Positions 1,166 to 63,999 of a stretch of 64,000 nt of DNA are shown here, piece by piece. Under the pieces are notes generated by a model. It searched no databases and was not told the DNA's origin. It saw only the letters and a program-made list of their open reading frames with translations. The stretch is from Promethearchaeati archaeon (GTDB taxonomy: Archaea; Asgardarchaeota; Heimdallarchaeia; Heimdallarchaeales; Heimdallarchaeaceae), in contig JABLTJ010000004.1 of assembly GCA_013166775.1 (NCBI GenBank), forward strand, positions 64,001 to 128,000, written 5' to 3'. Numbering within the stretch: the stretch's first letter is position 1; the number at the start of each line of letters is the position of its first letter. The translations under genes and the position numbers were made by a program.

Positions 1166-1221
1166 ACCATAAAAATATAGATTAAGGGAAAAATAAAAGC
1201 TTTTGGGAGAAAATCAGTAGA

Positions 1222-2936: not shown

Positions 2937-3068
2937 ACAATTTCCTCCTGAACATCTATGCTACACAAATGGTTCAAATGACATTTATAAACGTTGTTGA
3001 AAAAACTTGTTTTTAAGTTTTTTATTATGAGTTCCTAATCGTAAATTTTAAATCGTTCAAACTAAATC

Positions 3069-38115: not shown

Positions 38116-38212
38116 GAGGAAAATGTTAAAAATAATAGTTTTATCTACTCAATACGCATTTTTTATATATTAAAATCTAAATAGTGAAATAGCAGACAAA
38201 GAAAGTGAGAAT

Positions 38213-45798: not shown

Positions 45799-45800
45799 TG

Positions 45801-47570: not shown

Positions 47571-47736
47571 TTTAATGACCTTTAAATATTATTACTTAAA
47601 GTTCTTTTCAGTCTTTAGGTATTTATGAATTTTTGATATCCAATAGTTTAAGGAAAAGCTTTTAAACATGAATACGACTTTTTGTTCTAATTCAAACATA
47701 AGCAAACTAAAGACAACCGATTTACAGGTGTATTAT

Positions 47737-48156
47737 ATGAGCAAGAAAAAGAAAGATGAAAAAGAAGAAGTAGTTGAAGAGGAAGTCGAAGAAGAAGTAG
47801 GTGAAGAGGAAGCTGAAGAAAAAATAGTTGAAGAAGCAAAGAAAAAGAAGAAACCTGCTCCTAAAGCTAGAAGTGAAGAAGAGCGTCAAATAATCTACAT
47901 CGGTAAGAAGAACACCATTAGCTATGTTCTCGTTGCTGTAACTATATTAAATAAGCATGATAACTGTAATATCCAAGCGAGAGGAAGGCAAATCTCTAAA
48001 GCAGTTGATGTTGCAGAGATTACTCGCAGAAAATTCTTACAAGACATAGTTGAAGTAAGTGGTGTTATTATTGGTTCTGAAGATATCGCAAGTGATATAG
48101 AAGGAATGCCACCTAAGACTGTCTCTACAATTGAGATAATTATGAAGAAAAAATAG
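47737..48156 (+). CDS. albA: DNA/RNA-binding protein Alba with acidic N-terminal extension
   Basis: IYIGKK...YV, ARGRQISKAVDVAEI.RRKF, VSTIEI; AGGTG RBS before ATG 47737. Confidence 0.92.
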   Translation: MSKKKKDEKEEVVEEEVEEEVGEEEAEEKIVEEAKKKKKPAPKARSEEERQIIYIGKKNTISYVLVAVTILNKHDNCNIQARGRQISKAVDVAEITRRKFLQDIVEVSGVIIGSEDIASDIEGMPPKTVSTIEIIMKKK

Positions 48157-48213
48157 CAAAGTAAGATTCACTTAATAGAATTTTTTTCTTTAATTTTTTA
48201 TATATAATTGATG

Positions 48214-49623
48214 TTAGATGAAATCTCCTGTTTCAATCTTTTGAGGTAGATAGAAATTTGTAATATATTGTGGATCTCGAGCATTCAGAGCTTGTATTTC
48301 AGCTTTATACCCACTGGAAATTAGAATCTCTAACTGTTCTTTCCATCTTGGTTTTCTTACTACAAATTCCTCTTCTAGCATAAGCTTAGATCTATGAATA
48401 TCTTTGGCAGTCATTTTTAGGAGAGTGCTACTAGGAATATCAAAACCACTTTCTGGAGCTAGATCACTTGGAAGAAGCCCCAACCACTTAATGCTTGGTA
48501 CTGCTAAATGACTAGATTCGAAGCTTAGTGCTTTGCTTCCTACACTATAAACTCTCATGATTTCAAATCCATAGGGATCGGCATCCATAATCGCAAAAAT
48601 AGGGAGCTTCAATTCATCATCTATTTTTTTGAGAAACTGTCTTGTTGCAATATCTGGTTGTCCTTTTGCAGTTATTAGAATACTTGGCACATAATCATAA
48701 AAATGATCTTCTGCTAATCTATTAAAGACAGCATCTTTTTCTATTACTAATACAAATTCTGCATCAGAATCTAAATCTTCTATGTCATCTATATTCGGTG
48801 AAATAGCTTTTCCTGCTCCAATTGCTCTACAATTAATTAAATCACCTTTTTCCTTAAAATCTATGCGACCTACAACTATACCTTTAGAAGATGCACTTAT
48901 GTTGAGTGAGGATCTAGTTACTTGCAACATTGCGCTCAAATCCTCTAATAATGAATCAGAGACAGTTTGCTTCTCAAACGAATTAACATCCATGTAAAAT
49001 ACATCTCTTTTGGTACTATGAATATCTCTGGTAAGAATATCGTGAATAATCCTCATAATGATAGTCATTTGTTCCACAGAGCTTACAGATGCAAGATTAC
49101 GAAATTGTCGTTCAATCATTTGTCTTCCAATTAGAACGAGTTCTTGTTCTTCGTCAAATCCTACATTTGTTCCAGCTCTAGAGGGAATATAAAACGAAGC
49201 TTCAGATGGAGATAGCATTGCCTGTTGAAGAAAAGCCAAAGAGTATTCCACAAGCAAATTGTTGGTTTCTTCAGATGTTTTAGTATCTACATGAGTAACA
49301 CCAAAAGGCATAAAATGATCTAATTTATGTTCAAGTTCTTTACGAACATCTTGAATCTTTTTCAGAGAAACTGCGTTTTTTATACTGATTTTCATTGTTT
49401 CCTTTTGCAAAGGGTATCTTGATAATTTTCGAGTTGATTCCAGTTTGTACCATTTCTTTGCACTTCTGAGAAATAAAACAAAAGATCCTCGCCTAAGATC
49501 AAAGGCTTCTCTAGCCCATGAATACATTTCTCTAACTAAAATTTCTTTATCAAAACTAAATGGTTTTTCCAATGCGGGTATAATTGTTGAGTTTCTAAAT
49601 ATGAAATTAAATTCAGGTGGCAT
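48214..49623 (-). CDS. top6A: DNA topoisomerase VI subunit A with N-terminal ubiquitin-like extension
   Basis: TKRDVFY (catalytic Tyr region), TOPRIM IEKDAVF and DADPYG, KGQPD, KAEIQAL. Confidence 0.93.
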   Translation of the reverse strand: MPPEFNFIFRNSTIIPALEKPFSFDKEILVREMYSWAREAFDLRRGSFVLFLRSAKKWYKLESTRKLSRYPLQKETMKISIKNAVSLKKIQDVRKELEHKLDHFMPFGVTHVDTKTSEETNNLLVEYSLAFLQQAMLSPSEASFYIPSRAGTNVGFDEEQELVLIGRQMIERQFRNLASVSSVEQMTIIMRIIHDILTRDIHSTKRDVFYMDVNSFEKQTVSDSLLEDLSAMLQVTRSSLNISASSKGIVVGRIDFKEKGDLINCRAIGAGKAISPNIDDIEDLDSDAEFVLVIEKDAVFNRLAEDHFYDYVPSILITAKGQPDIATRQFLKKIDDELKLPIFAIMDADPYGFEIMRVYSVGSKALSFESSHLAVPSIKWLGLLPSDLAPESGFDIPSSTLLKMTAKDIHRSKLMLEEEFVVRKPRWKEQLEILISSGYKAEIQALNARDPQYITNFYLPQKIETGDFI

Positions 49624-49625
49624 TT

Positions 49626-52600
49626 TTAATTACCCTCCTTTTTTTGGGTGTTTGAAGATTTCTTAACCGTTGTTGTATTTTTGTTACTTTTGGTCATATC
49701 CAACAAAGTTGTCTGTCTAGCTTTAGCTGATTTTCTATCGGCAGATTTTGTTGTAACTGAAGTTTTTGGTTTTACTGAGGTTGAACCAGCTTTTTTAGGT
49801 GTAGCTTTTTTAGTAACAGGTTTTGAGGTACTAGTTTTCTTAATGACTTTTACTTTCTTAGGTGGAAGTCTGCTTTTTAGGCTCTTGATAGCCATATAAC
49901 TGAGATCTGTTTTCTCATCGAGTTGCGCAGCTGGATAAACTACAAAATCTTTGATGGTGGTAATTCCTAATTGCTTGATTTGCTTAATTACTTCAGGTTT
50001 TATCTCTAAAGTTCCAATGGGTTGTTCAAGTATTCCTATCAGCTTCTTAACATTTGGATCCTTTAACGATGTGGAATTCTTCATCTCTGTATCTGGCATT
50101 AAAAGTGCTTGAAGAGTGGTTATACTACTTCCTTTCAATTGAGCTATATTACCTTCAGTAATATGTGGAAGTGTTTTTCTTATTTCGACTTGATCCTTTT
50201 CAGCTTGCTTGAGAGATTCAGGATTCAATGACGCATAAAGTGATCGAAGATCCTTTACAGGTAGTGTAATTATCTTAGAGAGCTGTTGAACTAGAGTTGC
50301 GAATAAATCCCATAAATTATTGATATTTTTGCTATGCAACAGAAAAACACTCTGAGCATTGATTTTAATCATGTCAGTAAGATAATAAATCGGGGTTTCC
50401 AGAAGTTTTTGTATTCGAGATATTTGAAGTTTATTTAATCTCGAAGTTGAAGCTATGAGTTCTTCTGAGGCTTTCAAATGAGCGATGGTTGTATAACCAG
50501 ATATCTTTAATAATTTCTTTGTGTTTTTATCGAACAAACCTATCTTATCTACAGGATAACTCTTGTTAACCAACGCATCTTTTATCGACAAGAGACTCAA
50601 GGAACTTTGTAATTTCTGTACAATTGTTTGTTCCTGTTCTGTAAGAGACATTTTTACAACTTTTCTTACATCTGGAACAACAATGAAATCAATAACTTGT
50701 ACGATTCCTGCTACTTCTAATTTAGAAATTAATCGTTCTTGATTAACAAACAGATTGATCGGAGCTCTTAGAGCAATAACTAATTCGACAAGTTCTGGCT
50801 CGTAATCTGCGATCTCCGTATTCTCTAGATGTTTAATCAGAGTACCGAAGGATCTAATTTTCTGTTTTCTGAGGAAAGGTGCTAACTCTGAACCGCGTAT
50901 AAAGCTAGACAATCTCTTCTGTTCATCGTCCAGCATTCTTTCCACTTTTGTTGAGGATAATTTAGGTAAAAGATTAGCACAACTCAGTTTATCGCTTTCA
51001 GGTGTAGTTGATTTGCAATAGAGCAATAAATCATAAATATTGACTAGCTTTAATTCTGATACAAGTTTCTGGATATTCTTGGATTGTCTAATAGGTGGTA
51101 ATGAAAGCAATTCTGTTTCTACCATAGAACAAACAGTTTCTGTGAGTTTCCAGAGAGAACTTGTTTTAGCACTAGATTGTCTATTGAAAATTATAGCTTC
51201 TTCAATTGAATAAATAGTGTTACTCTCTAATTGTGATATATTACTTCCACTAAGTAATTCAGAAGGTAGATTCGTCAATTCCTTTTCAAGATCATTTAAA
51301 AGACTAATTGATATATTTCTAAGATTTCTTAGGAATGTCGTTTCTGAGATCTGTTTCTTAATCTTGATACTATCTTCTAGCAATAACTCTCTGATATTTC
51401 TATATGGGAGTTTAGCTACTTGATCGATACTATTTCTAGTAGGAGCTAAGAGAATAGGAGATCTTGATAAAAATGGAACCAATTCCTTGAATCGCTTACT
51501 TATTTTTGAGTGTAGATGCGATTTTGTTTGGTCATAGATTGCAGTTTTATGCTTTTCAAGTAATAGTAAATATTCAATTGTTGAATCTGACATTTCCAAT
51601 TTCTGATCTTTAGATTCAAGATTGAGTATTTGAGATAGGGGTAAACCTTTACTAAAAATGAAATTAATTACAGTACTGATACTATCTCGCTGTTTTTTCT
51701 CCATGGTCATTTTATCTATGCTTGGAGCCAAATATGCAAGGTCTAATATTGATAAGGAAAACTCGGAAGTTGAATCAAAATCTTTCAAATTTAGTTGTTT
51801 AAAGATTTTTATCTTATCCAAGATATAGTTTGGAACTTTCTCAAGTTTTACTTTCTTCTCAAAAAGGTCTACATAAGTCTTGATGTCCTTTTGTTTCAGG
51901 ATGTCTATATCCTTTTTGGAGAATAATTTATTCTCTTTAATTATTGGATGATGACCAATGTTGCCTTCAGTTAATGAATAACGCAGTTTTTCAACTTCAG
52001 TTTGTTTAAGGGAAAGAATTGAAGATAACTCTTTGTTTGTTAATAAATATAAATCTTCAATTGTTTTAATCGATTGGAGTAACCTCTGCCAACTTTTTAT
52101 TGTTACATTAGGGAATAACAATAATTGTATTGGAGTATTCAATCTTCTTTGTATTTTGTTTCCTAAAGCTCTGGATATTGGATAATTTTCTTGTTTCAAA
52201 GAGTAGATTAAATCGTCCATTGTGGAATAATGTTTAAGAGTTTCTTTCTTCGTTTCAGCATCAAAAATCTTAATCTTACTTAGTTGAACTTTTTTGCTAA
52301 CATCTGTTTCTATCTTCTTATATGATAATGATGTTAGTGAAGTAATTATTGCTTCCTTGAATGAAGCAGGAGTCAAATTGGTCCAGAAAGAGCCAGGTTT
52401 GATAATAAGTTCACCAACAGTGAATACTCCTTTCAAGGCAAGATTTTCGGTATCAGACTTCGAAAGAAAAGACAATGAAGAAACAGGATTCTGGAATGAT
52501 TGATTGATTTTGTGTCCTAATATGCTTAATGAATCCTTATTCTGTTCTAAAACAGTGACTAAATCAACAACTGTGTTGACATTAGAGACACTAACCTTCT

Positions 52601-55600
52601 TTGAGAATAACTCACCTGGATTGTCATTTTCAAGATATTGTGAGAGTGGTATATAATCGCTTTTAACAGCTGTTTTGTTCGCAGAAAATAGTTTCATGAA
52701 TCCTATGATTTTATTCTTTTCAGCTTGAGTACTTGAGGAAATGAGTTCTTGTACTGTTGTTATTCCAGTTTCAAAATAATCTCTTTTGATATCTGAAAGG
52801 GTATGTTCTGATATACTTGGATAATACAGGATTGAGGTTGCTAGAGCTGATCTTGTTTTATTTCGTATTTGTTGTATTTTCTTCTCTGAAACAAGCCAGT
52901 CATAAATGGAGTTTCCTGCAAGTTCATCTAGAGAATAAATTCCTATCGATTTTAAGAAATTTCTATCTGCTGTTGATAAGAAAAAGAATTCATCAGCAAT
53001 CTTTTCAGCTATTGTATCAAGCTTTTGGATTATATTATCTATTTTAAAACTATCAATCTGATTTTGTATATCAGAAACTTTTGTCTTTGTCGTTGCTGCA
53101 ACTATACTAGGGGACATAAAGAATAAATCTGCTATAATTGTAAAATCAGCTTTTTTCCATTTATCTAGAATTTTTGGATCAACTTCTAGATATTTTAGAT
53201 TTGCTAGAAGATAAGGAGCAAATTTAGTATAAATCTCTTCATCTTCCTTAAATGAAGGAGAGGTTATAAGAGCCTTATATGACGAAAATCCTTTCTGCTG
53301 TAGAAAAACTTCCAACTCAGAGAGAGGTTCGACGAATCCAGATTCTCTTATACTTTTGATCAATGAGAGAGAATCCAGAATTTCCTCTTGAATATTCTTG
53401 GGAAGTTTCTTTATGAAAATAAGATGCTCAATGATTGTAGTTAGTCCTAGGTCATAACAAAAATCAATGGATTCTTGTGTAATAGTGGACAAGTAACTAA
53501 TGTTATATGACAGTTTATCTCTCAAAGCATTAATGTCATTTGATTTCAATCGTGTATTTTTCACAATATATTCAATAGGGATGAAATACAAGTGCTCGAT
53601 TGTAGAAACACCTATTTGAAGGAGTGGAGTGGTTAATTTAGCTGACAAGCTTAATTTCTCTAATCCTATTCCCTGTTTCTTTATATTTTTAAAGAGCTTA
53701 ACTAGATAATTTGGATCTTCTTTTTGATTATCAATTAGCTTATGCAAGCTAGGAGACCAGTTCTTTGGAGGGATTTCCAACAAGTTTGTGTAGGTTATAA
53801 CACTGTTGCTTAGCAAATCCTTAATCTCAGTATGTTTGAATTTTAGAGTCTTTCCGATTAGAGTAATTGGTGTTAAGAGATAAGAAGTAAGTTTCACTAT
53901 TTTGTTACGTTCTTCATTTGAGAAAGGTAATAAATCTAGATTCAGTTTCGATGCTTGAATAAGCGAAACACAACCATAATCAGCTAAGATTTTTCTTGTA
54001 TCTTGAGATATTTCAGGAAATAGGCTTAAATCCATTCCAGTTTGTTTAACATTTTGCTCCAGAAGTTTTATATCTTGAGTTGTTTTGTTTCGAGTAACCT
54101 GCTCTTCTGGAATCTTTGTAATTGCGGAGAGTAGAGGTGTAGGAACCAATAGGAATTGGTAAAGATTCCTTATACCATGTCCCTTAATTTTATCAATTTG
54201 CTTTGTTGAAAGATTATCGACTGAAGACAAGGGAAGGCTTTTCAGAGAGAGAATCAAGGGATAAACCTCAGCTAGTAAGCTTTCATTTTCAACAATCTTG
54301 CTATCTAGTGAGAGTAGTTCATCTAAAAAGATAATTTTTTCATCTTTTAGTTTCTTTAGAATAGATGGATCAGTTATTATTTTTGTATCTTCAAGTTTAA
54401 TTGCCCAATCTGGTGGACTGAATTGAATAATACTGCTATTCAGAAATTCAGTAGTCTTCGAATACAAACTTTGATATTGTTCATTTTGAGATAAAAGTAA
54501 TAATCCTGAGATTATATTTATTCCACCTATTTGAGCAAGAGACAGCAATTGTTTAACACTTAAGGACAAGTCAGAAGTAAGCCAAGAGATTGGTTTAAAC
54601 ATATTTGAAGTTGCAATTCTTATGATTGATTTCTCAAGATCATCTAGCTCAAAAACTGGATGAGGGATGAAATCAATTATCAATAATGCGCTTGATAATC
54701 CATATTTCATAAATTGTTTTTCTGCTTTGTTTGGGAATGACAAAGAATGATCTATAAACTGTGAAAATGTTTCAGACATTTTCTTACTTAATTCAAATTC
54801 TCTCTTAAAATTCCTTATTTCTGATGTTGTTTCTTTTGAAACACCGGTTAATTCACTTAAGTTAAGTGAGAGAAGTTCTATAACATGTTTGATCCCTTTG
54901 TTCCACAAAACTGATTTTGTAGGAATACTAATGCCAGGGATGGATAATACATTCAAACATAAGAAACTGACGAGCTGTTCGATGAATGCGATGCTTGAGG
55001 TTTTTACAATCTTATCTGATTCTGTTAGTTGCATTAAAGCCTCAGGTATGAACCCAAATAAGTCCTCTGCAGCTTTTTTAGTTGGATCAAATTCCAAGGA
55101 TTTTAGTAATTGAATTATAGGTTCATTTAGCTTTAATTGAGCACCTTTAGAGAGAGTAAAAGCTCCTTTCCTAATCTTACTTATTTCTTTGGGAACAGAA
55201 CCCTCGAATGCACTTTTAAGATCTTTATCTGAGCTATTGAATAGATCTATAAGTCTAAGAATTCCTTCTCCTATCAATCTTAGTTTATCCTCTGATGAAA
55301 GCTCTTTGATTCTATAAACAGAGATATGACATCCATTGAGAAATTCTCTCATGTAATCTCCTGAAACACTTATAGAGGGATAAGCTTGATAATTCAAACT
55401 ATACAAATCTTGTACATATTCTTTTCCAGTTCTAAGTAATGAAGCAATCTTTCCTTTTGATAATACACTGAATTCTTCGAGTTTTACTCCTTTTCTGTTG
55501 ACCTCTTTCATTAGGTTTTCAGGCGTTATTCGCTCTAAAAATCGCTGGACTTTCTTTTCACTCATTTTTAGAAGAAGAGCAATTGTAGATACATCTTCAG

Positions 55601-58600
55601 TTATAAATGAGAGAATATCCCCGACTCCTGAATAAATTAGCTTGCGAACTTGGTTATTATCCAAGCCTATGAATGCAACAGAAGCTCGGTATAGTTGAAC
55701 TTCTCTGAAGATGTCAAGTTTCACTAAAGCAGGACGCGACTCTCTAATTTCTTCCATGCGGGAAATAAAGTCCTGGATTGAGTTTATTCCAATATCATTC
55801 AGTTTCTCCAGATAATCTTCCTCTATAGAGGGGCAAACAGAAAGAGGAATTGCAGAACTTATACGTCTTTCAGCAAGTTCATCAAAAGAGATAAGATCTA
55901 ATGCATGAAACTCTTGATAAATTGGATTTTGAGTGATCTGATGTAACTCGTCTTTATTTACTAATGCAAGATCAATTACTGAATTTATCTCATGAAATTC
56001 TAATCGTTTCAATTCATCATATGAAAGAAATCCAATGAATCTTATAGATCCAGAAAGAAGCTCCTTTGCTTTCTTGTATTCTTCTATTGAAAGAATTTCA
56101 GAGATACCCATAATGCTTGCAGAATAAAAGAATGATTCAATATCGGAAACACCTATGTCTTTCAGATCTTCTATCTTCTTTTCTGACAAGTACTCTGAAG
56201 GTCTTATTATATGAGCTTGAGATAAGCGGAAAGCAACTATATCGGAATAGGTTAATGCATCTTTTATTTCTCTTATTTCTTTTTGAGAATTACCAGTTAT
56301 CTCAGAAATTTGTTTTACTGGAATTGAAAAGAAATCAATTAAAGTATTAACTGAGGATTTACTTAACTTGAGAGCAATTGATCTAGGTAATCCCATAGAA
56401 GCAATAGGAATTGCAAGCTCCATGATTAACCTGTCTAACGAATCATCTTCTAATAAACGAGTATAAAATGGTTGAAGAGCAGAATGTTCTTCAAAATCAA
56501 TTTCGAAAACATCTCCAATTATTACGTTTTTGTATTCTTCTCGTCTTGCTTTTCTAATTCGAGTAAAGAACGGTGTGATTCTTAGAGGAAGCTCCAAAAT
56601 TGATCGAATTAGGGTTAAATTATAATTCTCTGTTAGATATTGTTGATCCTTCCCCATTAGGTCTTTTATAACCTTATTATCGGTAATTACATCAAATAAT
56701 GTCTTATTCTCTATATCTTGAACTACTTTCTTGAAATAAGATGAATTATAAACAGTAGCAGGGAGATTCGCAAAATAATGAAATGCCTGCATTATAATGA
56801 TTTTTGAAGAATATGTTGATACAACACGGAACAGAACAGGATCTGTAAGATCTGCATCAGGAATGAAAAGCAATTGGTAAACATAATTGATGTTATTTTG
56901 CTCAAGAATCTCCATAGAAAACTCTGAAATCTCTGTGAAAATCTTTAATGGTAGTGTTAGATACTTCTGAACTGCAGAGATTTTTTTCCATATTTCTGGA
57001 TTGGAATAATAGTATTGCTCCTCTGTTGAGTAATATAGTTCTTGGATTGTTTGAAAACGCTCAAATTGAAATATTGAATCTCTACTTAATACTCTTTGCT
57101 CATGCTTATCAAATAGTTGTGTTTCAAAGGCAAAAATACCTTTGTTTTCATAGAGAGCTTGAATGCTAGATGTTGTCAAAGTTGTTATAATTTCCTTAAC
57201 CTCTTCTGGTTGAGCTTTTATTAATTTACTAGTTTTTTGAGCTGGAGCCATAATGAATTCTGCAATAGTTTGAATTCCATTTTCTCTAAGAATTTCAGTA
57301 TTGGTAAAGGATATAGATGGTAAGAAATAAACTGGTAATGAGAAGTAACCAAAGATATCGGATAAATCTAAAGCATTCTTTATGGTTTCAAATCTTTCAT
57401 CCGCAATTCCTGTCTTTTCCATAAGTGCTTCAGGTGAGGATAACATGAATCCAAGTAGAGTGGAAATACTAGCTTTTCTTAGTATTTCGATAATCTCTGG
57501 ATCTAACATATCTGATATATGATTGAGTGGAAGGTTCAAGATTGCTTTAAAAGATTCAATAACATACCAAGGTAGAGAATCTATTGTCCATTTGTCCTTT
57601 GAAGTTGAGAAGTACAGATCCTCAATTGTGACTATATTATGTATATCTAATTCTCTTACAATCCTAGGTTCTAAAATTCCAAGTTCTGATAGATCTATTC
57701 CAGTATCACTTATTCGTACATTCTTTTGCAGTGATCTAGCTTCTTCGATTTCAATACCTAGATACTCAATTAAATCTGAGGGTTGACTAACCAGTAAATC
57801 GATAATTTTTGTTATTCCATGATTACGAAGGGTGTTCAATTGTTGAGTAGATAGAGTAGAAACTAGTATATCATCTATATAACTATCTTCTTCTGTTTCC
57901 TCATCTTTTACTGCTCTCTTAATCTCTTGTTCCCAAGTCACTAAGGTTAATGGAGAACGTAGAAGTTTCCTAAATTTTTCTATCACATTCCAATTAACAA
58001 AAGCTGATGAAAATGTGAGAGGGTTTGCAAGATAGAAGATTTTGTCTATGGTATCGTATCCAGATAGAATTAAAGAAACAATCTCAGGAGAGGAGAATCT
58101 CTCAGACTCTTCAAATTCAAATGAAATTAAGGACTCATATTTATTCCCTTTTTTCTCAAAGAAGAAGGTTCCTTGTTTTAGAATTGAAAAATTCTCAAAT
58201 AGTTGTGTTACATTTTCCTCTTCTTTTCCAAGAATGGATGCTAATTCTGCAACAGTAAAATCAAAGATTTGATGGATGGCTATTATTCCATAATTTCTCA
58301 ATTTATCATAATCATCCAAAGTGAGACCACTAATTCTTGATATCGGAAGAGCTAGACTTCGTAGAAACTCATCATACTCGCTAATAAGAACTATTTGTTT
58401 ATTAAATTCACTCTCTTCATCGATATCTCTTGTTTTAATTTTATTGTATAAATTCAAAGCTAACTTTCTTTCTTTTGTTGAACTAAGTTCTGACTCAATT
58501 ATCTCAGGAAGCAAATCTAAAAACTGTCTGATTGTTACAATATTTCTTAATTTTAACTTTAGTAATGTATTTTTTAGTTCAGGATGCTCTTTGAACTTAC

Positions 58601-61600
58601 TAGAATATATTTGAGTAAGCTCGATTAATTCAAGATTAGAAAGTTTGTTCAGACTCTCAAAATTCTTCCAAAAATCTTGAGTTAATGATGGTTTTTCAGT
58701 AGGGTAGACACTGAAAAGATCCTGCAAATTAAGGTTAAATTGATCAAAATAACTAATGAATTTTGGAAAGATTTTCTTAAATATTTCAATATCTTTTCCA
58801 AAAGTAGCTCTGTTTTTATTAATTTCTTCTGCTGAAACAGTCTTCTTGAATTCTTCTATTTTTATTTCCGATAGATTTAGAATTTCTGCTAATTCACTGT
58901 TAGACCATAGTGTGAAACGACCTATGCAGTTTATACCCACATCATATAACAGATTAGAATTCTTACGAAGAGAGGGAAAAGCAAAAATCAGAGGAGTTCG
59001 GAGGAATGTTGAGATTTCTATATATTTTTTCTTGTTTTCTGATGATAAAGAATAGGCTTCTGGAGGATTATAAAACAGCTCTTCTAAGGTAACAATTCCT
59101 TCTGTTTTAAAGAATTCAGGTTCATCAATCCAAGAGGGTATAGGTACCCCCAGTTTCTTCTTAATCCACTCAATATCTTTTTTACGTAAACCAACTTTAC
59201 GTAATTGGGGAGAAGGATAAGCTAAGAAAGAAGAGGTTGTAAAAATTTGAAGAGCAGTCAAGTCTCTTTCAATATCTTGAGGTATGATTTTTATGTGAGA
59301 GAGATCTTTATCCTGTTTGGTCTCCCTAATATGAGATAAGAGTTTATATTTAGATTCTTTAAGTAAGAAATCGCGAAGCGATGCAAATTTCTTGTTATGA
59401 ATTGAATTTACTGGTAAATAAATTAAATCCAATAAAGTTGAGATCTTGTTTGTAGCTAGAATCTTCTTGACTTCTGATTCTTCTTGGTTTAAACTTTCAT
59501 CTGTTGTAAATTGTAACTTTGATAAAGAAATAGACTTCGAAGAAGAAGAAAGGATATCCATATAAGATGCATAGAGTTTTCGTTCAAGTTCTTTGATTAC
59601 TATTAGTTCATCAAGATTAGTATTCAGAAAATTCTCGATTGTTTTTATTTTTCTCCTGTGGAAAGCGTTCTTAGTATATGCATCCGTCCAATCAGGAGTC
59701 ATTTTAGTAATATTTGTTTTAGCAAAATCTGGGAATTTATCACATAATTGGGAATAAACATTCTGCATATAATTTACTAATATTGCAGTAATTTCTGCTT
59801 GATAATTTATAGTAGTAGGTAGTTTAGTTTGAAAGAGAAACTCCTCGATAGTTGTTTCTTGAGCGATTAAACCCTTAGAATTATCCTTTAGGTAATCAAA
59901 CGATGGGAATAAAGTCTGTATTTTTAGGTCTGTTGTTTTAGTCAAGGAAGCTATTAGTTGCTTACCTTCGGAGGAAATTGCAGCACCATTTTTCTTATTC
60001 CTATTGAGTAAAAACTGATGTAACAAATCTTCCCTCATATTTTCAAAAAGCTTCTCTGGTAAACCCGCAACTGATTGAAGTTTATAAAAATCAGTAGCAA
60101 AGTAATGATAACTATTTTGTATCCAACGTCTATACAAAGAGTCCTTTAAAGAATCAAATGATTTTCCATTGTCTGAAATAAATCTTTTTTCTATGGTTCT
60201 ACTCACAAAGATTTTAGGATCAAATCCTGGACTCATACCTTCCCTATCTAGTTCTGATATTGTTCTCAATTTTATGTTGTAAATATCCTCTTCAGAGAGC
60301 GATAGAAGAGTTACAAGTTCTTTTGAAGGGGTAATAAGAAAATCTGCAACAGACTCAATTTCTTTTGATTTCAAAGCTGATTGTATTCTTGAAGGACACC
60401 ATACATTGGCTCCAAAAAGTCTTTTTCCTAAAGGCATGAAGAGTTTGACTTTTTTCGTTGCTCCATGAGCAAGCGCTGCTGCAATTCGATCTGTTTCCAA
60501 CCTGAAATCAGTATAGCTTAGATCTTCATCTTCCAATATTTTTGTTAGATTCTCAACAATTATTGGAGCTGATCTAACAAAACGAGATAATCTTGCATGT
60601 TCTCTTCGTTTTCTTTTTGCTCTACTAAGAAAGGTCTTTAATCTTCTTCCTAATTGCATTAGAGCTAATCTAATTTCTTCCTCAATCTCTGGAACAATAG
60701 ATACATATTCCTTGCTAGTTTCTGGGAAGGGTATTTTTGTACTAACTAATGAAACAGCAATTGCTAATGGATCAGATTGTCTAGTAAGACCATAATCACT
60801 CCACCTTATTGAAGAGACAACATGTGTAATAACATCGTTCCCAGCACCAAAAACAAGAGGGATTCGATTAGCATAACGATATATTATCTTATTATCTGTT
60901 ACTGTCGCACCTTTTACTTGTGATGCTTCAGCTACTCCTCCACCATATCCTAATGCTGCTTCAATAACAAATGGATGTCCAGAGTAAGCTTTTGGAGCTC
61001 GAGTGATAGCTTCTACGAATTTTGGCTGTAATTCTTTTTCCAAACCTTTCCTTAATCGGTTTGATCCTAGAGGTGAAAGAGCTGTTCCTCTTGGGGCATC
61101 AAACTGGAAAATTCTATCTCTTTTTCTCTTTACATCTTTAGCTTCTTGATATGCTTTCACGAATCCTTCATGAACAATTCTTCGAATCTCATGAGATGTG
61201 ATATCTTTTGGGGATTTGTTTGGATCTATCTCTAGGAGCTGGAAGAAATGCTCTGCTATTTCCTCATTCACTCCCATAAATTGTGTGGCTAGAAATTCCT
61301 TCAATTTCTTGCTTCTAGTCACTGCTAATTCAGCTTTAAACTGTGTAATATCACACCCCCAAGGATGAATTTTCACTGGTTGAGGAGGTGGAGGCATATC
61401 ATCGACAACACTCTCATAGTCCAACTCCTCTGTTTCTCCTTCCTTGTCACCTGGTAATCTAACTTTGAAGCTTGAGTAAGGAGTAATAATTGCTAACTGT
61501 TTGAAATACTCCTTCACACTATTTTTCGCTAATCTCCAAGCACCTGTAAATGTAATTGAAATTTCCAAACCTGGTTCTTCCAAATAATTAGGATCTCCTG

Positions 61601-62138
61601 GAAGATATTCATGCTGTTCCATAATAATTGGTTCATTCTTTTCCAGGTTAATCATCAAGTGCATTTCATGGGTTATATCGTCCATGAAATACCTACTACG
61701 AATCTTAGCGGGGAGATCTACAGAAGACATTGAATAAAGCAAACACATTTTTGCTCCTAAACCGAATCTTCCACGTGTCTGAATAACACCATATTTAGTT
61801 CCTGTTAAAACTCTCCCAAATAGATCTGCAATCTCATTACCAGGAACTCCAACACCATTATCTCTGCATGATAATTGAAGAAAATCTAAATGCTTTTCCA
61901 GTTTCTTGTATTGTGTTACATCCAATAGCTCATTAATTTCTCTACTGGATAATTTTCTTAAATCAATAGAAATAATTGGACTAGTTCCTCTCTTTTCTGC
62001 TGAATCCAAGCCATTTTCAACTAATTCTCTTATGCTAGTAAAGACTGCTCTCATAGAATTTCCAAAGCCTGCAATAGCTCTATTCTCATTAAAAAAAGCT
62101 GCTGCAGACATCTTCTTTGTGATAGAATTTTCAGACAC
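49626..62138 (-). CDS. top6B: Giant DNA topoisomerase VI subunit B (4170 aa) with C-terminal tandem HhH-repeat array
   Basis: ELVENGLDS, DNGVG, GTKY, RGRFGLG, H2TH domain, RYANRIPL, KIPFPETSKE within the first ~560 aa; top6A starts 2 nt after its stop. Confidence 0.92.
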   Translation of the reverse strand: MSENSITKKMSAAAFFNENRAIAGFGNSMRAVFTSIRELVENGLDSAEKRGTSPIISIDLRKLSSREINELLDVTQYKKLEKHLDFLQLSCRDNGVGVPGNEIADLFGRVLTGTKYGVIQTRGRFGLGAKMCLLYSMSSVDLPAKIRSRYFMDDITHEMHLMINLEKNEPIIMEQHEYLPGDPNYLEEPGLEISITFTGAWRLAKNSVKEYFKQLAIITPYSSFKVRLPGDKEGETEELDYESVVDDMPPPPQPVKIHPWGCDITQFKAELAVTRSKKLKEFLATQFMGVNEEIAEHFFQLLEIDPNKSPKDITSHEIRRIVHEGFVKAYQEAKDVKRKRDRIFQFDAPRGTALSPLGSNRLRKGLEKELQPKFVEAITRAPKAYSGHPFVIEAALGYGGGVAEASQVKGATVTDNKIIYRYANRIPLVFGAGNDVITHVVSSIRWSDYGLTRQSDPLAIAVSLVSTKIPFPETSKEYVSIVPEIEEEIRLALMQLGRRLKTFLSRAKRKRREHARLSRFVRSAPIIVENLTKILEDEDLSYTDFRLETDRIAAALAHGATKKVKLFMPLGKRLFGANVWCPSRIQSALKSKEIESVADFLITPSKELVTLLSLSEEDIYNIKLRTISELDREGMSPGFDPKIFVSRTIEKRFISDNGKSFDSLKDSLYRRWIQNSYHYFATDFYKLQSVAGLPEKLFENMREDLLHQFLLNRNKKNGAAISSEGKQLIASLTKTTDLKIQTLFPSFDYLKDNSKGLIAQETTIEEFLFQTKLPTTINYQAEITAILVNYMQNVYSQLCDKFPDFAKTNITKMTPDWTDAYTKNAFHRRKIKTIENFLNTNLDELIVIKELERKLYASYMDILSSSSKSISLSKLQFTTDESLNQEESEVKKILATNKISTLLDLIYLPVNSIHNKKFASLRDFLLKESKYKLLSHIRETKQDKDLSHIKIIPQDIERDLTALQIFTTSSFLAYPSPQLRKVGLRKKDIEWIKKKLGVPIPSWIDEPEFFKTEGIVTLEELFYNPPEAYSLSSENKKKYIEISTFLRTPLIFAFPSLRKNSNLLYDVGINCIGRFTLWSNSELAEILNLSEIKIEEFKKTVSAEEINKNRATFGKDIEIFKKIFPKFISYFDQFNLNLQDLFSVYPTEKPSLTQDFWKNFESLNKLSNLELIELTQIYSSKFKEHPELKNTLLKLKLRNIVTIRQFLDLLPEIIESELSSTKERKLALNLYNKIKTRDIDEESEFNKQIVLISEYDEFLRSLALPISRISGLTLDDYDKLRNYGIIAIHQIFDFTVAELASILGKEEENVTQLFENFSILKQGTFFFEKKGNKYESLISFEFEESERFSSPEIVSLILSGYDTIDKIFYLANPLTFSSAFVNWNVIEKFRKLLRSPLTLVTWEQEIKRAVKDEETEEDSYIDDILVSTLSTQQLNTLRNHGITKIIDLLVSQPSDLIEYLGIEIEEARSLQKNVRISDTGIDLSELGILEPRIVRELDIHNIVTIEDLYFSTSKDKWTIDSLPWYVIESFKAILNLPLNHISDMLDPEIIEILRKASISTLLGFMLSSPEALMEKTGIADERFETIKNALDLSDIFGYFSLPVYFLPSISFTNTEILRENGIQTIAEFIMAPAQKTSKLIKAQPEEVKEIITTLTTSSIQALYENKGIFAFETQLFDKHEQRVLSRDSIFQFERFQTIQELYYSTEEQYYYSNPEIWKKISAVQKYLTLPLKIFTEISEFSMEILEQNNINYVYQLLFIPDADLTDPVLFRVVSTYSSKIIIMQAFHYFANLPATVYNSSYFKKVVQDIENKTLFDVITDNKVIKDLMGKDQQYLTENYNLTLIRSILELPLRITPFFTRIRKARREEYKNVIIGDVFEIDFEEHSALQPFYTRLLEDDSLDRLIMELAIPIASMGLPRSIALKLSKSSVNTLIDFFSIPVKQISEITGNSQKEIREIKDALTYSDIVAFRLSQAHIIRPSEYLSEKKIEDLKDIGVSDIESFFYSASIMGISEILSIEEYKKAKELLSGSIRFIGFLSYDELKRLEFHEINSVIDLALVNKDELHQITQNPIYQEFHALDLISFDELAERRISSAIPLSVCPSIEEDYLEKLNDIGINSIQDFISRMEEIRESRPALVKLDIFREVQLYRASVAFIGLDNNQVRKLIYSGVGDILSFITEDVSTIALLLKMSEKKVQRFLERITPENLMKEVNRKGVKLEEFSVLSKGKIASLLRTGKEYVQDLYSLNYQAYPSISVSGDYMREFLNGCHISVYRIKELSSEDKLRLIGEGILRLIDLFNSSDKDLKSAFEGSVPKEISKIRKGAFTLSKGAQLKLNEPIIQLLKSLEFDPTKKAAEDLFGFIPEALMQLTESDKIVKTSSIAFIEQLVSFLCLNVLSIPGISIPTKSVLWNKGIKHVIELLSLNLSELTGVSKETTSEIRNFKREFELSKKMSETFSQFIDHSLSFPNKAEKQFMKYGLSSALLIIDFIPHPVFELDDLEKSIIRIATSNMFKPISWLTSDLSLSVKQLLSLAQIGGINIISGLLLLSQNEQYQSLYSKTTEFLNSSIIQFSPPDWAIKLEDTKIITDPSILKKLKDEKIIFLDELLSLDSKIVENESLLAEVYPLILSLKSLPLSSVDNLSTKQIDKIKGHGIRNLYQFLLVPTPLLSAITKIPEEQVTRNKTTQDIKLLEQNVKQTGMDLSLFPEISQDTRKILADYGCVSLIQASKLNLDLLPFSNEERNKIVKLTSYLLTPITLIGKTLKFKHTEIKDLLSNSVITYTNLLEIPPKNWSPSLHKLIDNQKEDPNYLVKLFKNIKKQGIGLEKLSLSAKLTTPLLQIGVSTIEHLYFIPIEYIVKNTRLKSNDINALRDKLSYNISYLSTITQESIDFCYDLGLTTIIEHLIFIKKLPKNIQEEILDSLSLIKSIRESGFVEPLSELEVFLQQKGFSSYKALITSPSFKEDEEIYTKFAPYLLANLKYLEVDPKILDKWKKADFTIIADLFFMSPSIVAATTKTKVSDIQNQIDSFKIDNIIQKLDTIAEKIADEFFFLSTADRNFLKSIGIYSLDELAGNSIYDWLVSEKKIQQIRNKTRSALATSILYYPSISEHTLSDIKRDYFETGITTVQELISSSTQAEKNKIIGFMKLFSANKTAVKSDYIPLSQYLENDNPGELFSKKVSVSNVNTVVDLVTVLEQNKDSLSILGHKINQSFQNPVSSLSFLSKSDTENLALKGVFTVGELIIKPGSFWTNLTPASFKEAIITSLTSLSYKKIETDVSKKVQLSKIKIFDAETKKETLKHYSTMDDLIYSLKQENYPISRALGNKIQRRLNTPIQLLLFPNVTIKSWQRLLQSIKTIEDLYLLTNKELSSILSLKQTEVEKLRYSLTEGNIGHHPIIKENKLFSKKDIDILKQKDIKTYVDLFEKKVKLEKVPNYILDKIKIFKQLNLKDFDSTSEFSLSILDLAYLAPSIDKMTMEKKQRDSISTVINFIFSKGLPLSQILNLESKDQKLEMSDSTIEYLLLLEKHKTAIYDQTKSHLHSKISKRFKELVPFLSRSPILLAPTRNSIDQVAKLPYRNIRELLLEDSIKIKKQISETTFLRNLRNISISLLNDLEKELTNLPSELLSGSNISQLESNTIYSIEEAIIFNRQSSAKTSSLWKLTETVCSMVETELLSLPPIRQSKNIQKLVSELKLVNIYDLLLYCKSTTPESDKLSCANLLPKLSSTKVERMLDDEQKRLSSFIRGSELAPFLRKQKIRSFGTLIKHLENTEIADYEPELVELVIALRAPINLFVNQERLISKLEVAGIVQVIDFIVVPDVRKVVKMSLTEQEQTIVQKLQSSLSLLSIKDALVNKSYPVDKIGLFDKNTKKLLKISGYTTIAHLKASEELIASTSRLNKLQISRIQKLLETPIYYLTDMIKINAQSVFLLHSKNINNLWDLFATLVQQLSKIITLPVKDLRSLYASLNPESLKQAEKDQVEIRKTLPHITEGNIAQLKGSSITTLQALLMPDTEMKNSTSLKDPNVKKLIGILEQPIGTLEIKPEVIKQIKQLGITTIKDFVVYPAAQLDEKTDLSYMAIKSLKSRLPPKKVKVIKKTSTSKPVTKKATPKKAGSTSVKPKTSVTTKSADRKSAKARQTTLLDMTKSNKNTTTVKKSSNTQKKEGN
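49870..60400 (-). repeat. Protein-level tandem repeat array (~60-65 aa unit, HhH/RadA-NTD/alphaCTD-like)
   Basis: Recurrent L..P[IL]..L....L...GI.T[IL].[DE]L motif; about 50-57 copies counted by eye. Confidence 0.8.
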
Positions 62139-62307
62139 GTTGTCTACCCCACTTTATAACTCATATTTAACTTTCTATTATATTACATTAATTATAGTCT
62201 TACACGAGTATATAGTTTACAGAATCAGATATCTATATTTAAAGTTAAATTTTACCGGCAAAAATTGTTAAAATTAAGAAAATGGAAAAAGAAAAGAAGG
62301 AGAGGTG

Positions 62308-63999
62308 TTACGATTTCCTGAATTTAGGTCCAGTTCTATAAAGAACAACTGACGTAACTACGAAACCAATTGTAACTAAGAATAAAGAAGCAAAAGCACC
62401 TATGGTACGGTTTGCATCTGCATTACTGATTTCATCTAGGAAATTCACCAGAAGGTATTCATAGAACTTAGAAGTTGCTCTGTGAACATCTTCTCCCCAA
62501 AAGAGAGTTCCCATGTTACCTGTTAATCCAGGATTAGTTGTGTGCCATGTTCTGTATCTATCACTTTCAGCTAAAATATCAGGATCTATAATCCATTCAT
62601 CTCTAACAGCGTCATAATAACCATATAACGTTGCATTAAGAAATGCATAAGCTTCTGAAAATCCTTCCACTCCTGTACAGTACTGTACTCTATCTTCTCT
62701 TAGAATAACACTTCCAGTGACAGGCTCTGCTCTCATATTTTGCATATGGAAAGGATCTCTGGAAAATCCAGGGAGAGAGTGCGTAAGCTCAAAATCACTA
62801 GGGCGGAAATCAAGATCATACATTCTATTCCATCTTCCTACGTGTATGAAACTAGAGTTCAGAAAGTTGGAAGTTATCATCCAATAAATATCTGTCATTG
62901 CTAATTGTCTGAGCGGTACAGTAGCTTGAGCAGTATAAACTAGAACATCTTGATCATAGAAGATAGCAGTATCTGTCAGAGAAGAATACGCAAATGGTCT
63001 AAAGAAGAATTCACTCCATTGTTGTCGTAAACCTTTTTCAGCATAAGGATAAACAGCAAAATTGTCGTAAGTTTCGTTAAATATTAATTCTGATTCTATA
63101 AGTGTCCAATCATTAAATTGAATCTTTGAATCTTGTCTCCAACACTCAACGAATGCATGCAACTCATCTCGTTCAAGTTCTTCAAAAGTGCCACCAACCC
63201 CTAACTCTAAATGGACAAGACCTTCAGAACCATCAGCAAGGTAAATATCATCTAGATCAGCAAAAATACCATATGCTGAACCTAAATGGTCAGTTCCATC
63301 AAATCTGTGTAGTTCTGTTAGGGTTGCAGGTGCAGTTGTACTTACAATTGTGAATCCATAATCACCTTGTGTAAGATAAGCTCTTGCTGTACCTTCATCA
63401 ACATAGAGATTGTTGAAATAAGTCTCTGCTGGATCGTAGGAGAATTGATCTAATTCTGTGAGAATACCATCAAAATCAACACTAAAAGTAAGTAATCCTT
63501 CTATTTGATCTAAAACATAAACAGTACTACCTTTAGCTTTGATATCAATAACGTTTTTGAGATTTGGAAAATCAGCTGCATTATAGTGTAACACATCACC
63601 TAAATAACCTGTAGCTTGCTCAATTTCTACAACATTGATTCCATCTGTACCTAGTGCTATATATGCATGTCTTCGATTATCGTTAACATCAATTGCAATA
63701 GCAGTACCGTTTAATGCTTTGGTCTCTATAGTTGTACTTATTGCTCCTTCTGAACCAATTGTATCGCTTATTCTAGCATATGTTATTCCATATACACCGT
63801 TAGCGATATACAGAGCATCAAATGGAAGACCTTCTCCCATGGAAGAATAATCTATATCTCGCATGTCAGAGTCGCCAAAATTACTCCATTGATCTACTTC
63901 ATATATTGAGGCTGGATTTGTTGCATTCAACACTTCTAATCCTCTTGCTCCTTCAACAGCATATACATATCCATCAACTACTGCAAAACCTAATATTTG
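62308..63999 (-). CDS. LVIVD-repeat (beta-propeller) surface protein with C-terminal TM anchor; 5' end lies outside the window
   Basis: Repeats YVYAVEGARGLEVLN, AYIALGTDGINVVE, AYLTQGDYGFTIVS, IYLADGSEGLVHL; frame stays open past 63933 to the window end; C-terminal TM plus basic tail. Confidence 0.82.
   Translation of the reverse strand, partial: QILGFAVVDGYVYAVEGARGLEVLNATNPASIYEVDQWSNFGDSDMRDIDYSSMGEGLPFDALYIANGVYGITYARISDTIGSEGAISTTIETKALNGTAIAIDVNDNRRHAYIALGTDGINVVEIEQATGYLGDVLHYNAADFPNLKNVIDIKAKGSTVYVLDQIEGLLTFSVDFDGILTELDQFSYDPAETYFNNLYVDEGTARAYLTQGDYGFTIVSTTAPATLTELHRFDGTDHLGSAYGIFADLDDIYLADGSEGLVHLELGVGGTFEELERDELHAFVECWRQDSKIQFNDWTLIESELIFNETYDNFAVYPYAEKGLRQQWSEFFFRPFAYSSLTDTAIFYDQDVLVYTAQATVPLRQLAMTDIYWMITSNFLNSSFIHVGRWNRMYDLDFRPSDFELTHSLPGFSRDPFHMQNMRAEPVTGSVILREDRVQYCTGVEGFSEAYAFLNATLYGYYDAVRDEWIIDPDILAESDRYRTWHTTNPGLTGNMGTLFWGEDVHRATSKFYEYLLVNFLDEISNADANRTIGAFASLFLVTIGFVVTSVVLYRTGPKFRKS

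Follow-up and report, generated by a model that had tools for sequence, protein, structure and literature searches.

The top6B-top6A locus

The analyzed window, a 64,000-nt stretch of the genome of a Promethearchaeati archaeon, contains on its minus strand a gene encoding a giant B subunit of DNA topoisomerase VI (Top6B), directly followed by the gene of the A subunit (Top6A). The top6B product almost certainly consists of a Top6B core, a giant array of helix-hairpin-helix (HhH)-type domains and a tail. The features distinguished within the locus are collected in Table 1.

Table 1. Features of the top6B-top6A locus (positions refer to the window).
Feature	Residues	Position	Strand	Characteristics
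top6B, whole gene		49626..62138	-	4170-aa frame from GTG; 476 kDa
Top6B core	7-542	60513..62120	-	GHKL ATPase, H2TH, transducer with switch lysine
Predicted (HhH)2-type five-helix array	~555-4095	49854..60476	-	~55 domains; ~121-aa two-domain super-repeat
Array, middle part	1400-1990	56169..57941	-	best conserved, acidic; ~9 units and a beta-hairpin insert at the start
Array, distal part	3000-4095	49854..53141	-	more diverged, all short helices; ~18-19 units
Basic tail	4096-4170	49629..49853	-	K/S/T/P-rich, low complexity; net +18, pI 10.9
PIP-box-like motif KARQTTLLDM	4139-4148	49695..49724	-	sole conserved island in the tail
top6A		48214..49623	-	469 aa; 5Y-CAP and Toprim, ~100-aa N-terminal extension

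In the ORF listing, top6B is the sole long frame at its place. The identical database protein starts at an ATG nine codons in (window position 62111), has 4161 aa and is labelled there plainly as "DNA topoisomerase VI subunit B". The start codon of top6A lies 2 nt past the top6B stop, with GGAGG at 49634-49638 within the end of top6B, and from this arrangement the two genes are read as translationally coupled. The domains of Top6A were recognized with PF21180 (E 3.1e-58) and PF04406 (E 5e-20).

The Top6B core

The N-terminal part of the giant protein was identified by NF003218 (439 bits against a cut-off of 274) and by TIGR01052, with a score of 380.7 bits that equals its cut-off (386.4 bits in the six-frame search), while Topo-VIb_trans (PF09239) matched residues 349-515 (E 2.9e-53). 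The GHKL/H2TH/transducer core aligns end to end with canonical Top6B proteins, i.e., those of S. shibatae (2zbk_B, 530 aa; E 6.9e-85) and M. mazei (2q2e_B, 621 aa; E 2.4e-62). In the S. shibatae alignment, the N-box, G1 box, G2 box and switch lysine are matched: the Bergerat-fold motifs RELVENGLDS, DNGVGVP and TRGRFGLGAK face their counterparts, and the lysine of ...ETSKE faces that of ...SAGKE. A sequence-only reading of this DNA had described all GHKL and transducer motifs as intact, which holds for these four elements but not for the WKxY motif of the transducer. The latter reads W-S-D-Y here and W-(S/N)-(D/E)-Y in 15 of 15 aligned orthologues. The tryptophan and tyrosine are thus retained, but not the lysine, a residue to which a part in DNA sensing is ascribed in other Topo VI enzymes.

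A six-frame profile search of the genome (88.7% complete) found this Top6B only. With its ATP-binding motifs and transducer intact, the single-copy giant Top6B is, as judged from its sequence, the functional topoisomerase VI B subunit of the organism. It shares the operon with Top6A with canonical archaeal Top6B, whereas 3600 aa more follow the transducer (~55 (HhH)2 domains, the basic tail and a PIP-like motif), and the Ig-like C-terminal domain of M. mazei Top6B was not seen.

Integrity of the giant gene

A frame of such length might result from a mis-join during assembly or represent a decaying pseudogene, so that the core and the extension would not form one protein. A single observation points in this direction: in an assembly of another lineage the core (622 aa) and the array (2996 aa) are encoded by separate ORFs overlapping by 28 nt. 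Against it stand the 12.5 kb without a stop codon in DNA of 32% GC and more than 14 collinear orthologues of 4140-4341 aa from independent assemblies, two one-contig genomes among them. Orthologues down to 40% identity are collinear with the giant Top6B, with almost no indels per unit, and the segment of residues 1400-1990 comprises 591 aa also in nearly all of them, a pattern read as purifying selection acting on every unit. Furthermore, contigs assembled separately from three sequencing runs (two of which are possibly the source of the present DNA) span the gene with 0-2 substitutions and no indel. An artefactual origin is thus extremely improbable, and the earlier claim of an intact, in-frame giant gene was borne out. 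The split ORF pair of the other lineage may reflect either a frameshift error or a genuine split.

Repeats and fold of the array

The sequence-only reading had proposed a unit of 60-65 aa in about 50-57 copies. The repeat is real and spans residues 580-4090, but its length is not uniform. In 17 of 20 consecutive pairs the unit spacing alternates between ~54-56 and ~65-70 aa (p=0.0013), which gives a ~121-aa two-domain super-repeat (~55 plus ~67 aa) present in ~27 copies. The proposed copy number is in line with the ~55-58 slots obtained from the spacing and the AF2 helices of both models (see below). Profile-profile comparison (hhalign) found 43 units at a probability of at least 20%, including 38 at 50% or more and 31 at 90% or more. 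An HMM constructed from distant homologues only gave 39 matches in the protein, of which 38 fell within the extension and 27 reached iE<1e-3. A division of the units into A and B classes by sequence similarity was marginal (permutation p ~0.05), the alternation resting on the spacing, and hydrophobicity autocorrelation of the array showed no clean period.

Regarding the affiliation of the units, RAD51D_N (PF21794) matched the array with E 2.3e-22 (79.4 bits against a gathering score of 27.3), whereas two profiles suggested earlier for the scan, HHH_5 with 19.9 bits (cut-off 27) and RNA_pol_A_CTD with 15.1 (cut-off 23.8), stayed under the Pfam cut-offs. The precomputed Pfam 38 matches comprise PF26169 (HHH_XRCC3_RpoA) on the identical protein, and PF26169, PF14520 and PF03118 on homologues. 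Compared with the PDB, the unit profile retrieved the N-terminal domains (NTDs) of RAD51D (5e-5) and RAD51 (4e-4) and the RNA polymerase alpha-CTD (1e-3). The likeness noticed earlier to the N-terminal domain of RadA encoded in this window is weak (E 0.0017), while that to RAD51-family NTDs and the alpha-CTD fold is good. A phmmer search of the extension against PDB sequences yielded a chance match only (E 0.028), and the best score of the ESM Atlas feature search, 0.84, was under the useful range.

Two parts of the array were modelled with AF2, residues 1400-1990 (16-orthologue alignment; mean pLDDT 76, pTM 0.64) and residues 3000-4095 (mean pLDDT 86.4, pTM 0.60), and in both models HhH-type helical units were found, as anticipated. 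With VIA-align, the first model matched the NTDs of RAD51D (Z 8.1, rmsd 2.3 A over 61 aa) and RAD51C (Z 7.7), a Z of ~8 being near the ceiling for 60-aa domains, yet common for helical models too. It also matched the alpha-CTD (Z 5.6-6.3), the C-terminal domain of AF1548, NusA-AR and SAM domains. The last unit of the second model matched AF1548 (Z 7.9), RAD51D NTD (Z 7.7), Rad51 (Z 7.4) and Topo V (Z 4.8). Superpositions on the RAD51D/C NTDs had an rmsd of 2.0-2.3 A. Whole-model Foldseek searches of the PDB with both models returned nothing at E<=0.001. A HEAT-like or TAL-like arm was considered and rejected, as karyopherin, Cas9, TAL effector and designed-toroid entries appeared only at probability <0.1.

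According to these profiles and models, the array units are of the five-helix (HhH)2 fold, closest to the RAD51-family NTD and RNA polymerase alpha-CTD, which agrees with the alphaCTD/NusA-AR fold class assigned to them beforehand. The best single-unit matches in both sequence and fold are the RAD51 NTD and bacterial alpha-CTD families (PF21794, PF26169, PF03118), with which the units share the signature L...GI.T(I/V).DL....eL....G(l/k)s...a..I. In the first hairpin, (N/x)-G-I-x-T, a single glycine takes the place of the canonical G-h-G; for the second, G-(L/I)-S is frequent. Whereas RAD51 NTD and alpha-CTD occur once per protein, ~55 such domains are chained in the giant Top6B and apparently packed together. 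The modelled inter-domain geometry appears fixed over these 591- and 1096-aa multi-domain stretches, and a rod-like packing is read only from their pTM values, obtained with shallow alignments (14-16 sequences).

The closest known case of HhH domains in tandem on a topoisomerase is, as previously supposed, Topo V of Methanopyrus kandleri (5hm5, 8df7), in which 12 tandem (HhH)2 domains stand behind the catalytic module. A single Topo V unit superposes on an array unit with an rmsd of 2.2 A over 47 aa (Z 4.8). The catalysis of the two enzymes is unrelated (type IC versus type IIB), as the N-terminal module is here a Top6B. The giant Top6B has four to five times as many units, and these are nearer to the RAD51 NTD and alpha-CTD. 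Topo V has basic repeats with AP-lyase sites, in contrast to the neutral or acidic array described here. To our knowledge, this is the largest natural array of HhH domains.

The C-terminal tail and its PIP-box-like motif

The length of the basic tail, read as disordered, varies among orthologues, and the conserved part is the motif within the peptide KSAKARQTTLLDMTKS. A KQxTLxD-type motif was present in 12 of 13 family tails (the 13th record is marked partial); in the alignment of the 13, Q, T and L were invariant and D was kept in at least 90%. Homologues from Thor-, Prometheo- and Hod-archaea end with the PIP-like motifs QKSLNAF, QKSLDEY and QKTLDAML, some of those in other Asgard classes having F or Y at position 7, whereas several large homologues, the Kariarchaeaceae-like 3500-aa forms, have basic tails without a recognizable motif. 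Compared with the PIP consensus QxxhxxAA, the present Q-T-T-L-L-D-M-T retains Q and L but lacks the aromatic pair, whose positions are taken by M-T here and by V-S, L-A or I-Q in orthologues. Archaeal proteins with a C-terminal PIP box (Fen1, RFC-L, NucS, NreA), for which the consensus peptide KTTQSTLDSFFK is cited (PDB 1RXM; PMC4929162), likewise have K-x-x-Q-x-T-L-x-D near the C-terminus, preceded by a disordered linker, and differ in the aromatic pair.

When the tail motif was modelled in the PIP pocket of the PCNA encoded by this genome, ipSAE reached 0.80 (best control 0.00). Of 80 solved complexes 58 attained this mark, as did 2 of 110 mismatched pairs; as PIP-PCNA is a textbook pair, this pass may simply mirror likeness to solved structures. 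The partner pLDDT was 48, and the runs agreed in at least 59% of contacts, which connect AKARQTTLLDM with PCNA residues 41, 44-48, 127, 130, 231-232 and 248-255. The tail carries a putative PCNA-docking motif, for which the model suggests possible docking. Both Topo VI subunits were recovered, along with PCNA and RFC, in pull-downs of NucS from P. abyssi (PMC4929162). The sequence-only reading had not linked the basic tail and the PCNA-docking-like motif to a function.

Possible roles of the arms

In the presumed A2B2 enzyme of ~1.06 MDa, two long folded arms, roughly neutral to acidic, would leave the core near the Top6A/DNA-gate end of the transducer. The sequence-only reading had regarded them as DNA-binding arms that could wrap, bridge or compact DNA or select crossings, a model in which the ~55 HhH modules of each would be non-specific binders of double-stranded DNA. 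The fold class includes known DNA binders (RAD51 NTD, alpha-CTD, UvrC, ligase A, Pol X, Topo V). In Topo V, tandem (HhH)2 domains already accompany a topoisomerase, and besides the strongly basic tail the array of the giant Top6B is itself mildly basic at either end (pI 8.8-9.4); by analogy, some array units may bind DNA. The charge of the array as a whole speaks against generic wrapping: it is -15 net over 3550 aa (pI 6.4), its best-conserved middle is acidic (pI 4.5-5.3), the most conserved third being the most acidic, and in every lineage examined the arrays are neutral to strongly acidic, down to -135 (the same pattern in 25 homologues, with pI ~4.9-6.4 in most). The single glycine of the first hairpin and the existence of fold members that make protein contacts (NusA-AR2 with alpha-CTD, RAD51 paralogue NTDs, SAM domains) weigh in the same direction. 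Moreover, the units are orthologous one by one and constant in copy number, which is unusual for redundant generic binders; such unit-by-unit conservation with few indels fits specific roles or packing better. As originally worded, the proposal of DNA-wrapping or compacting arms is therefore weakened, and we consider it rather unlikely.

The same acidic or neutral character, position-specific conservation and protein-binding structural neighbours would suit an arm serving mainly as a platform for basic chromatin proteins (histones, Alba) or replication and repair factors, with Topo VI as part of a chromosome scaffold. An Alba gene adjoins the top6B-top6A operon, but it is absent at the one other locus examined, and we regard this explanation as improbable.

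We favour, with confidence evenly divided for and against, a Topo VI that is tethered to the replisome and bears two long structured arms. According to this proposal, the C-terminus of Top6B would have been extended by ~27 copies of the ~121-aa two-domain module into ~55 RAD51-NTD/alpha-CTD-like (HhH)2 domains, and the arms would be structured spacers or scaffolds, not polycationic DNA wrappers, in which single units could give specific DNA or protein contacts. The arm ends would hold DNA by the basic tail and, by the PIP-like motif, PCNA rings left on replicated DNA, and the decatenase/relaxase core might thereby be kept at replication forks or on sister duplexes that have just been replicated. 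The tether taken by itself is tentative, its chances being somewhat below even. A further possibility is a long shot, namely that the ~3,500-aa arms are semi-rigid rods of tens of nm or more, each with a DNA-binding tail and a PCNA hook, which would be anchored to clamps on the two newly replicated sister duplexes and place the Topo VI gate between the sisters.

Distribution and relevance of the giant Top6B

In a quick tree, all extension-bearing cores group together, with arrays of ~7, ~25-28, ~45 or ~55 units; the homologues labelled as Hod-, Thor-, Odin- and Prometheo-archaeal have 2,300-3,100 aa. Among archaea, Topo VI is the chief decatenase, and the Spo11/TopoVIBL machinery of meiotic breaks descends from it. 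In the searchable literature we found no description of an Asgard Topo VI with an HhH array, in line with the earlier impression of novelty. The same protein family has been recognized as carrying something after the transducer, i.e., a "lineage-specific C-terminal extension" (Villain et al. 2022, PMC9348778) or "CTD +" (Brinkmeier et al. 2022, PMC9665070). Both speak of a "globular domain" or a CTD. HhH repeats are absent from their main texts, and neither the 1,700-3,700-aa size nor a PCNA motif was found to be stated there.

A recent study reported that the conserved Asgard Top6A/B copy is the closest relative of the eukaryotic genes (PMC12680538). In Heimdall-group archaea this copy, with a B subunit ~eight times the normal Top6B size, would be, as predicted, an enzyme of ~1 MDa with ~110 HhH motifs and a probable clamp hook. 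The giant form alters the biochemical meaning of "Asgard Topo VI" and provides a possible connection, accessible to experiment, of a type IIB topoisomerase with the replisome or chromatin. Should the long-shot reading with semi-rigid rods be true, the archaeal lineage with the Topo VI sister to that of eukaryotes would possess a decatenase that is tethered to the replisome, selects crossings and serves as an element of the chromosome scaffold.

Organization of the top6BA operon

The giant topoisomerase VI B subunit (Top6B) is encoded by a single open frame lying in DNA of 30–37% GC, and its product has a mass of 476 kDa. The identical database protein (P0002) begins with an ATG nine codons inside the frame (window 62111) and counts 4161 aa. 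The top6A gene starts 2 nt downstream of top6B and is preceded by a GGAGG sequence; an A2B2 enzyme composed of both products would reach ~1.06 MDa. The giant protein is the sole Top6B detected in this 88.7%-complete genome; GyrA and one PCNA are encoded there as well. The TP6A_N domain of Top6A begins only at residue 183, which gives roughly 100–180 additional N-terminal residues. The gene of an Alba-domain protein, convergent with the operon, was absent at the one other Top6B locus examined (L034). In this window, three tightly packed genes lie beyond the Alba gene.

Features of the top6BA region (residues of Top6B numbered from the GTG start)
Feature	Window position	Strand	Description
top6B	49626-62138	-	single open frame, 4170 aa, GTG start
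W-S-D-Y motif	60790-60801	-	Top6B residues 447-450
beta-hairpin insert	57855-57938	-	Top6B residues 1401-1428
tail motif KARQTTLLDM		-	Top6B residues 4139-4148
GGAGG	49634-49638	-	upstream of top6A
top6A	48214-49623	-	469 aa
Alba-domain protein	47668-48156	+	162 aa, Alba at residues 75-131, N-terminal extension
three-gene cluster	42854-47570	-	589-aa protein without Pfam match; Ras/Rab-like small GTPase, 196 aa; HEAT-repeat protein, 785 aa
frame called RadA in the sequence-only reading	38174-39316	+	N-terminal region compared with the repeat profile

The catalytic core

Residues 7-542 scored 439 bits with the Top6B equivalog model NF003218 (cut-off 274) and 380.7 bits with TIGR01052, and Pfam located Topo-VIb_trans at residues 349-515. 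The core was aligned end to end with the Top6B proteins of S. shibatae (2zbk_B, E 6.9e-85) and M. mazei (2q2e_B, E 2.4e-62). The sequence-only reading had described an intact core with all motifs, and the N, G1 and G2 boxes and the switch lysine of known Top6B proteins are indeed kept; the WKxY motif, however, reads W-S-D-Y. In other Topo VI enzymes, the lysine of this motif has been linked to DNA sensing; it is systematically replaced across the clade, where all orthologues have W-(S/N)-(D/E)-Y.

The repeat array and its predicted fold

On the extension, Pfam recognized RAD51D_N in three stretches (E 2.3e-22), with HHH_5 and RNA_pol_A_CTD below threshold, and Pfam 38 annotates PF26169 (HHH_XRCC3_RpoA) on the identical protein. 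To avoid circularity, an HMM of the repeat unit was trained on distant homologues only (P0018-P0033); its consensus, ...LDLPIS.L.ELPPELIKKLSKNGISTIIDFLLTPPEELAKILGLSEKEIEEIKK.., is that of an alpha-CTD/RAD51-NTD-like double helix-hairpin-helix (HhH). It gave 39 matches on the giant Top6B, 38 of them within residues 580-4090 and 27 with iE<1e-3, and a second census, in which sliding windows of the orthologue alignment were compared with the unit profile, revealed 43 units at a probability of at least 20%, 38 at 50% or more and 31 at 90% or more. The intervals of ~116–123, 157 and 181 aa between detected units have the size of one or two missed units, and in the folded region such intervals carry an identical short-helix pattern. 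Adding these intervals to the detected units, we count ~55–58 slots, in agreement with the ~50–57 copies estimated previously by eye; the similarity then proposed to the RadA encoded in the window proved weak (E 0.0017 for its N-terminal region against the repeat profile). Spacing alternates between ~54–56 and ~65–70 aa in 17 of 20 consecutive pairs (binomial p=0.0013), so the evolutionary unit is a ~121-aa domain pair; L-x-x-P-I tends to start the units that come after the short spacing.

Residues 1400-1990 (pLDDT 76, pTM 0.64) and 3000-4095 (pLDDT 86.4, pTM 0.60) were modelled with orthologue alignments. Both models consist of short helices throughout, except for one beta-hairpin between HhH units (two 11-residue strands, acidic, AF2). 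Fixed packing of the domains, in a rod or superhelix, may be read from the high pTM obtained for multi-domain stretches of this length. Foldseek with the whole models gave no significant match. Exhaustive structural alignment against 48,161 PDB representatives, with Z values that are modest in absolute terms and a tool warning attached to helical models, placed on single units the NTDs of RAD51D (Z 8.1, rmsd 2.3 Å over 61 aa), RAD51C (Z 7.7) and yeast Rad51 (Z 7.4) and the C-terminal domain of AF1548 (Z 7.2–7.9), followed by alpha-CTD, NusA-AR, UvrC, ligase A, Pol X, SAM domains and Topo V (Z 4.8). Every one of these hits is of the same fold class, in keeping with the sequence evidence: against PDB sequences the unit profile matched the NTDs of RAD51D (5e-5), RAD51 (4e-4) and DMC1, as well as alpha-CTD (1e-3). 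The predicted units therefore fall in the HhH/alphaCTD/NusA-AR class, as had been proposed.

Conservation, distribution and origin

Fourteen full-length relatives (4161–4341 aa, 40–100% identity) are collinear with the giant protein, the alignment having 4411 columns for ~4200-aa proteins, and the segment 1400-1990 is exactly 591 aa long in almost all of them. Separately assembled contigs of three sequencing runs, two of which may be the source sample, span 48000-63000 with 0–2 substitutions and no indel. Together with the occurrence of the gene in single-contig genomes, this upholds the earlier claim that the frame is no assembly artefact.

Open frames carrying a Top6B match were surveyed in 300 genomes of the phylum. 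Their length is 4140–4305 aa in this archaeon's own family (nearly every genome has one match, and two of the genomes are single contigs), ~3500–3590 aa in the sister families of the order, 2312–2324 aa in another family of the class and ~1120 aa, beside a ~505-aa copy, in a further one, and copies of 500–680 aa were found in many other lineages. Two Top6B genes occur in a family of the same class represented by L040 (G235:C39:175490-179200): one is canonical (~505 aa), and the other (~1120 aa) has ~7 HhH units.

Among 1.84 billion representative proteins, the unit profile matched just 463 at E<=0.001 and 32 at E<=1e-30. Those of the top matches scanned that had more than 10 units were of two kinds: proteins with a Top6B core, and pieces lacking the core, of which several have no initial Met and are fragment-like. 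In P0048 (GCA_024280435.1, L034:4160-16397), a 622-aa core ORF and a 2996-aa array ORF overlap by 28 nt and are followed by Top6A; the split is either natural or due to a frameshift error. Extended forms carry the database labels Heimdallarchaeaceae, Kariarchaeaceae, Hodarchaeales, Thor-, Odin- and Prometheo-archaeota.

A quick maximum-likelihood tree was computed from 51 cores; a branch with SH-aLRT 100 has every one of the 32 extended cores on the same side. With the root being arbitrary, the ~1100-aa 7-unit forms come first within this group (the ~1120-aa protein of L040 branches at its base), then those of 2300–3100 aa and of 3500–4340 aa, a picture compatible with a single origin and subsequent step-by-step growth of the array.

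In the searchable literature, no paper was found to deal with Asgard, Topo VI and HhH together. Lineage-specific C-terminal extensions of Asgard Top6B were modelled as a globular domain (Villain et al. 2022, PMC9348778), and 'CTD +' was given for Asgard TopoVIB (Brinkmeier et al. 2022, PMC9665070). A 2025 study (PMC12680538) showed the conserved Asgard Top6A/B copy to be sister to the eukaryotic genes, its main text mentioning neither the extension nor HhH repeats. The giant Top6B with its in-frame HhH array, the existence of which is confirmed here, is a striking variant of a known enzyme; it is conserved and has apparently escaped description so far.

The C-terminal tail and the function of the arm

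The array ends in a low-complexity K/S/T/P tail of variable length, whose only conserved island is (K/R)-Q-x-T-L-x-D-hydrophobic. The form present here, KARQTTLLDM, resembles the archaeal PIP consensus KTTQSTLDSFFK (PMC4929162) but is devoid of its two aromatic residues; in other classes, homologues terminate with QKSLNAF, QKSLDEY or QKTLDAML. The complex of the PCNA of the same genome (17-row alignment) with the last 55 residues of Top6B (13-row alignment) was predicted with ipSAE 0.80 in three runs, versus 0.00 in all three controls (58 out of 80 complexes of known structure attain that mark, against 2 out of 110 mismatched pairs). Partner pLDDT was 48, and contacts agreed between runs in at least 59%. 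Since PIP-PCNA pairs are well represented among solved structures, this result shows likeness rather than binding. On the tail side, the contacts coincide exactly with the motif (fragment residues 23-33), and those on PCNA are residues 41, 44-48, 127, 130, 231-232 and 248-255, which we take to be the canonical PIP pocket, interdomain loop and C-terminal tail.

The obvious reading of the architecture is that the arm binds DNA, like that of Topo V. Against its simple version speaks the composition of the array, with a net charge of -15 over 3550 aa and pI 6.4; in the third that is most conserved (1296-2295) the pI drops to 4.5–5.3, and mild basicity occurs at the two ends only. Likewise, the arrays of 22 of 25 homologues are net acidic or neutral (pI 4.9–7.4, net charge as low as -135), and three are mildly basic (pI 8.1–8.5), while most cores are basic, as are the last 100 residues in most homologues (pI 10–12 in the larger forms). 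The DNA-wrapping function is thus doubtful, although the architecture was read correctly, and a rival explanation is kept in which part of the arm binds DNA. The unit-by-unit orthology at constant copy number suggests that each unit may have its own role or packing partner. Considering this orthology, the array charge, the tail motif and the PCNA model, we favour a model in which two long folded arms of Topo VI would serve as a tether or scaffold. With a DNA-binding tail and a clamp hook at their ends, they would hold the decatenase at forks or on DNA that has just been replicated.
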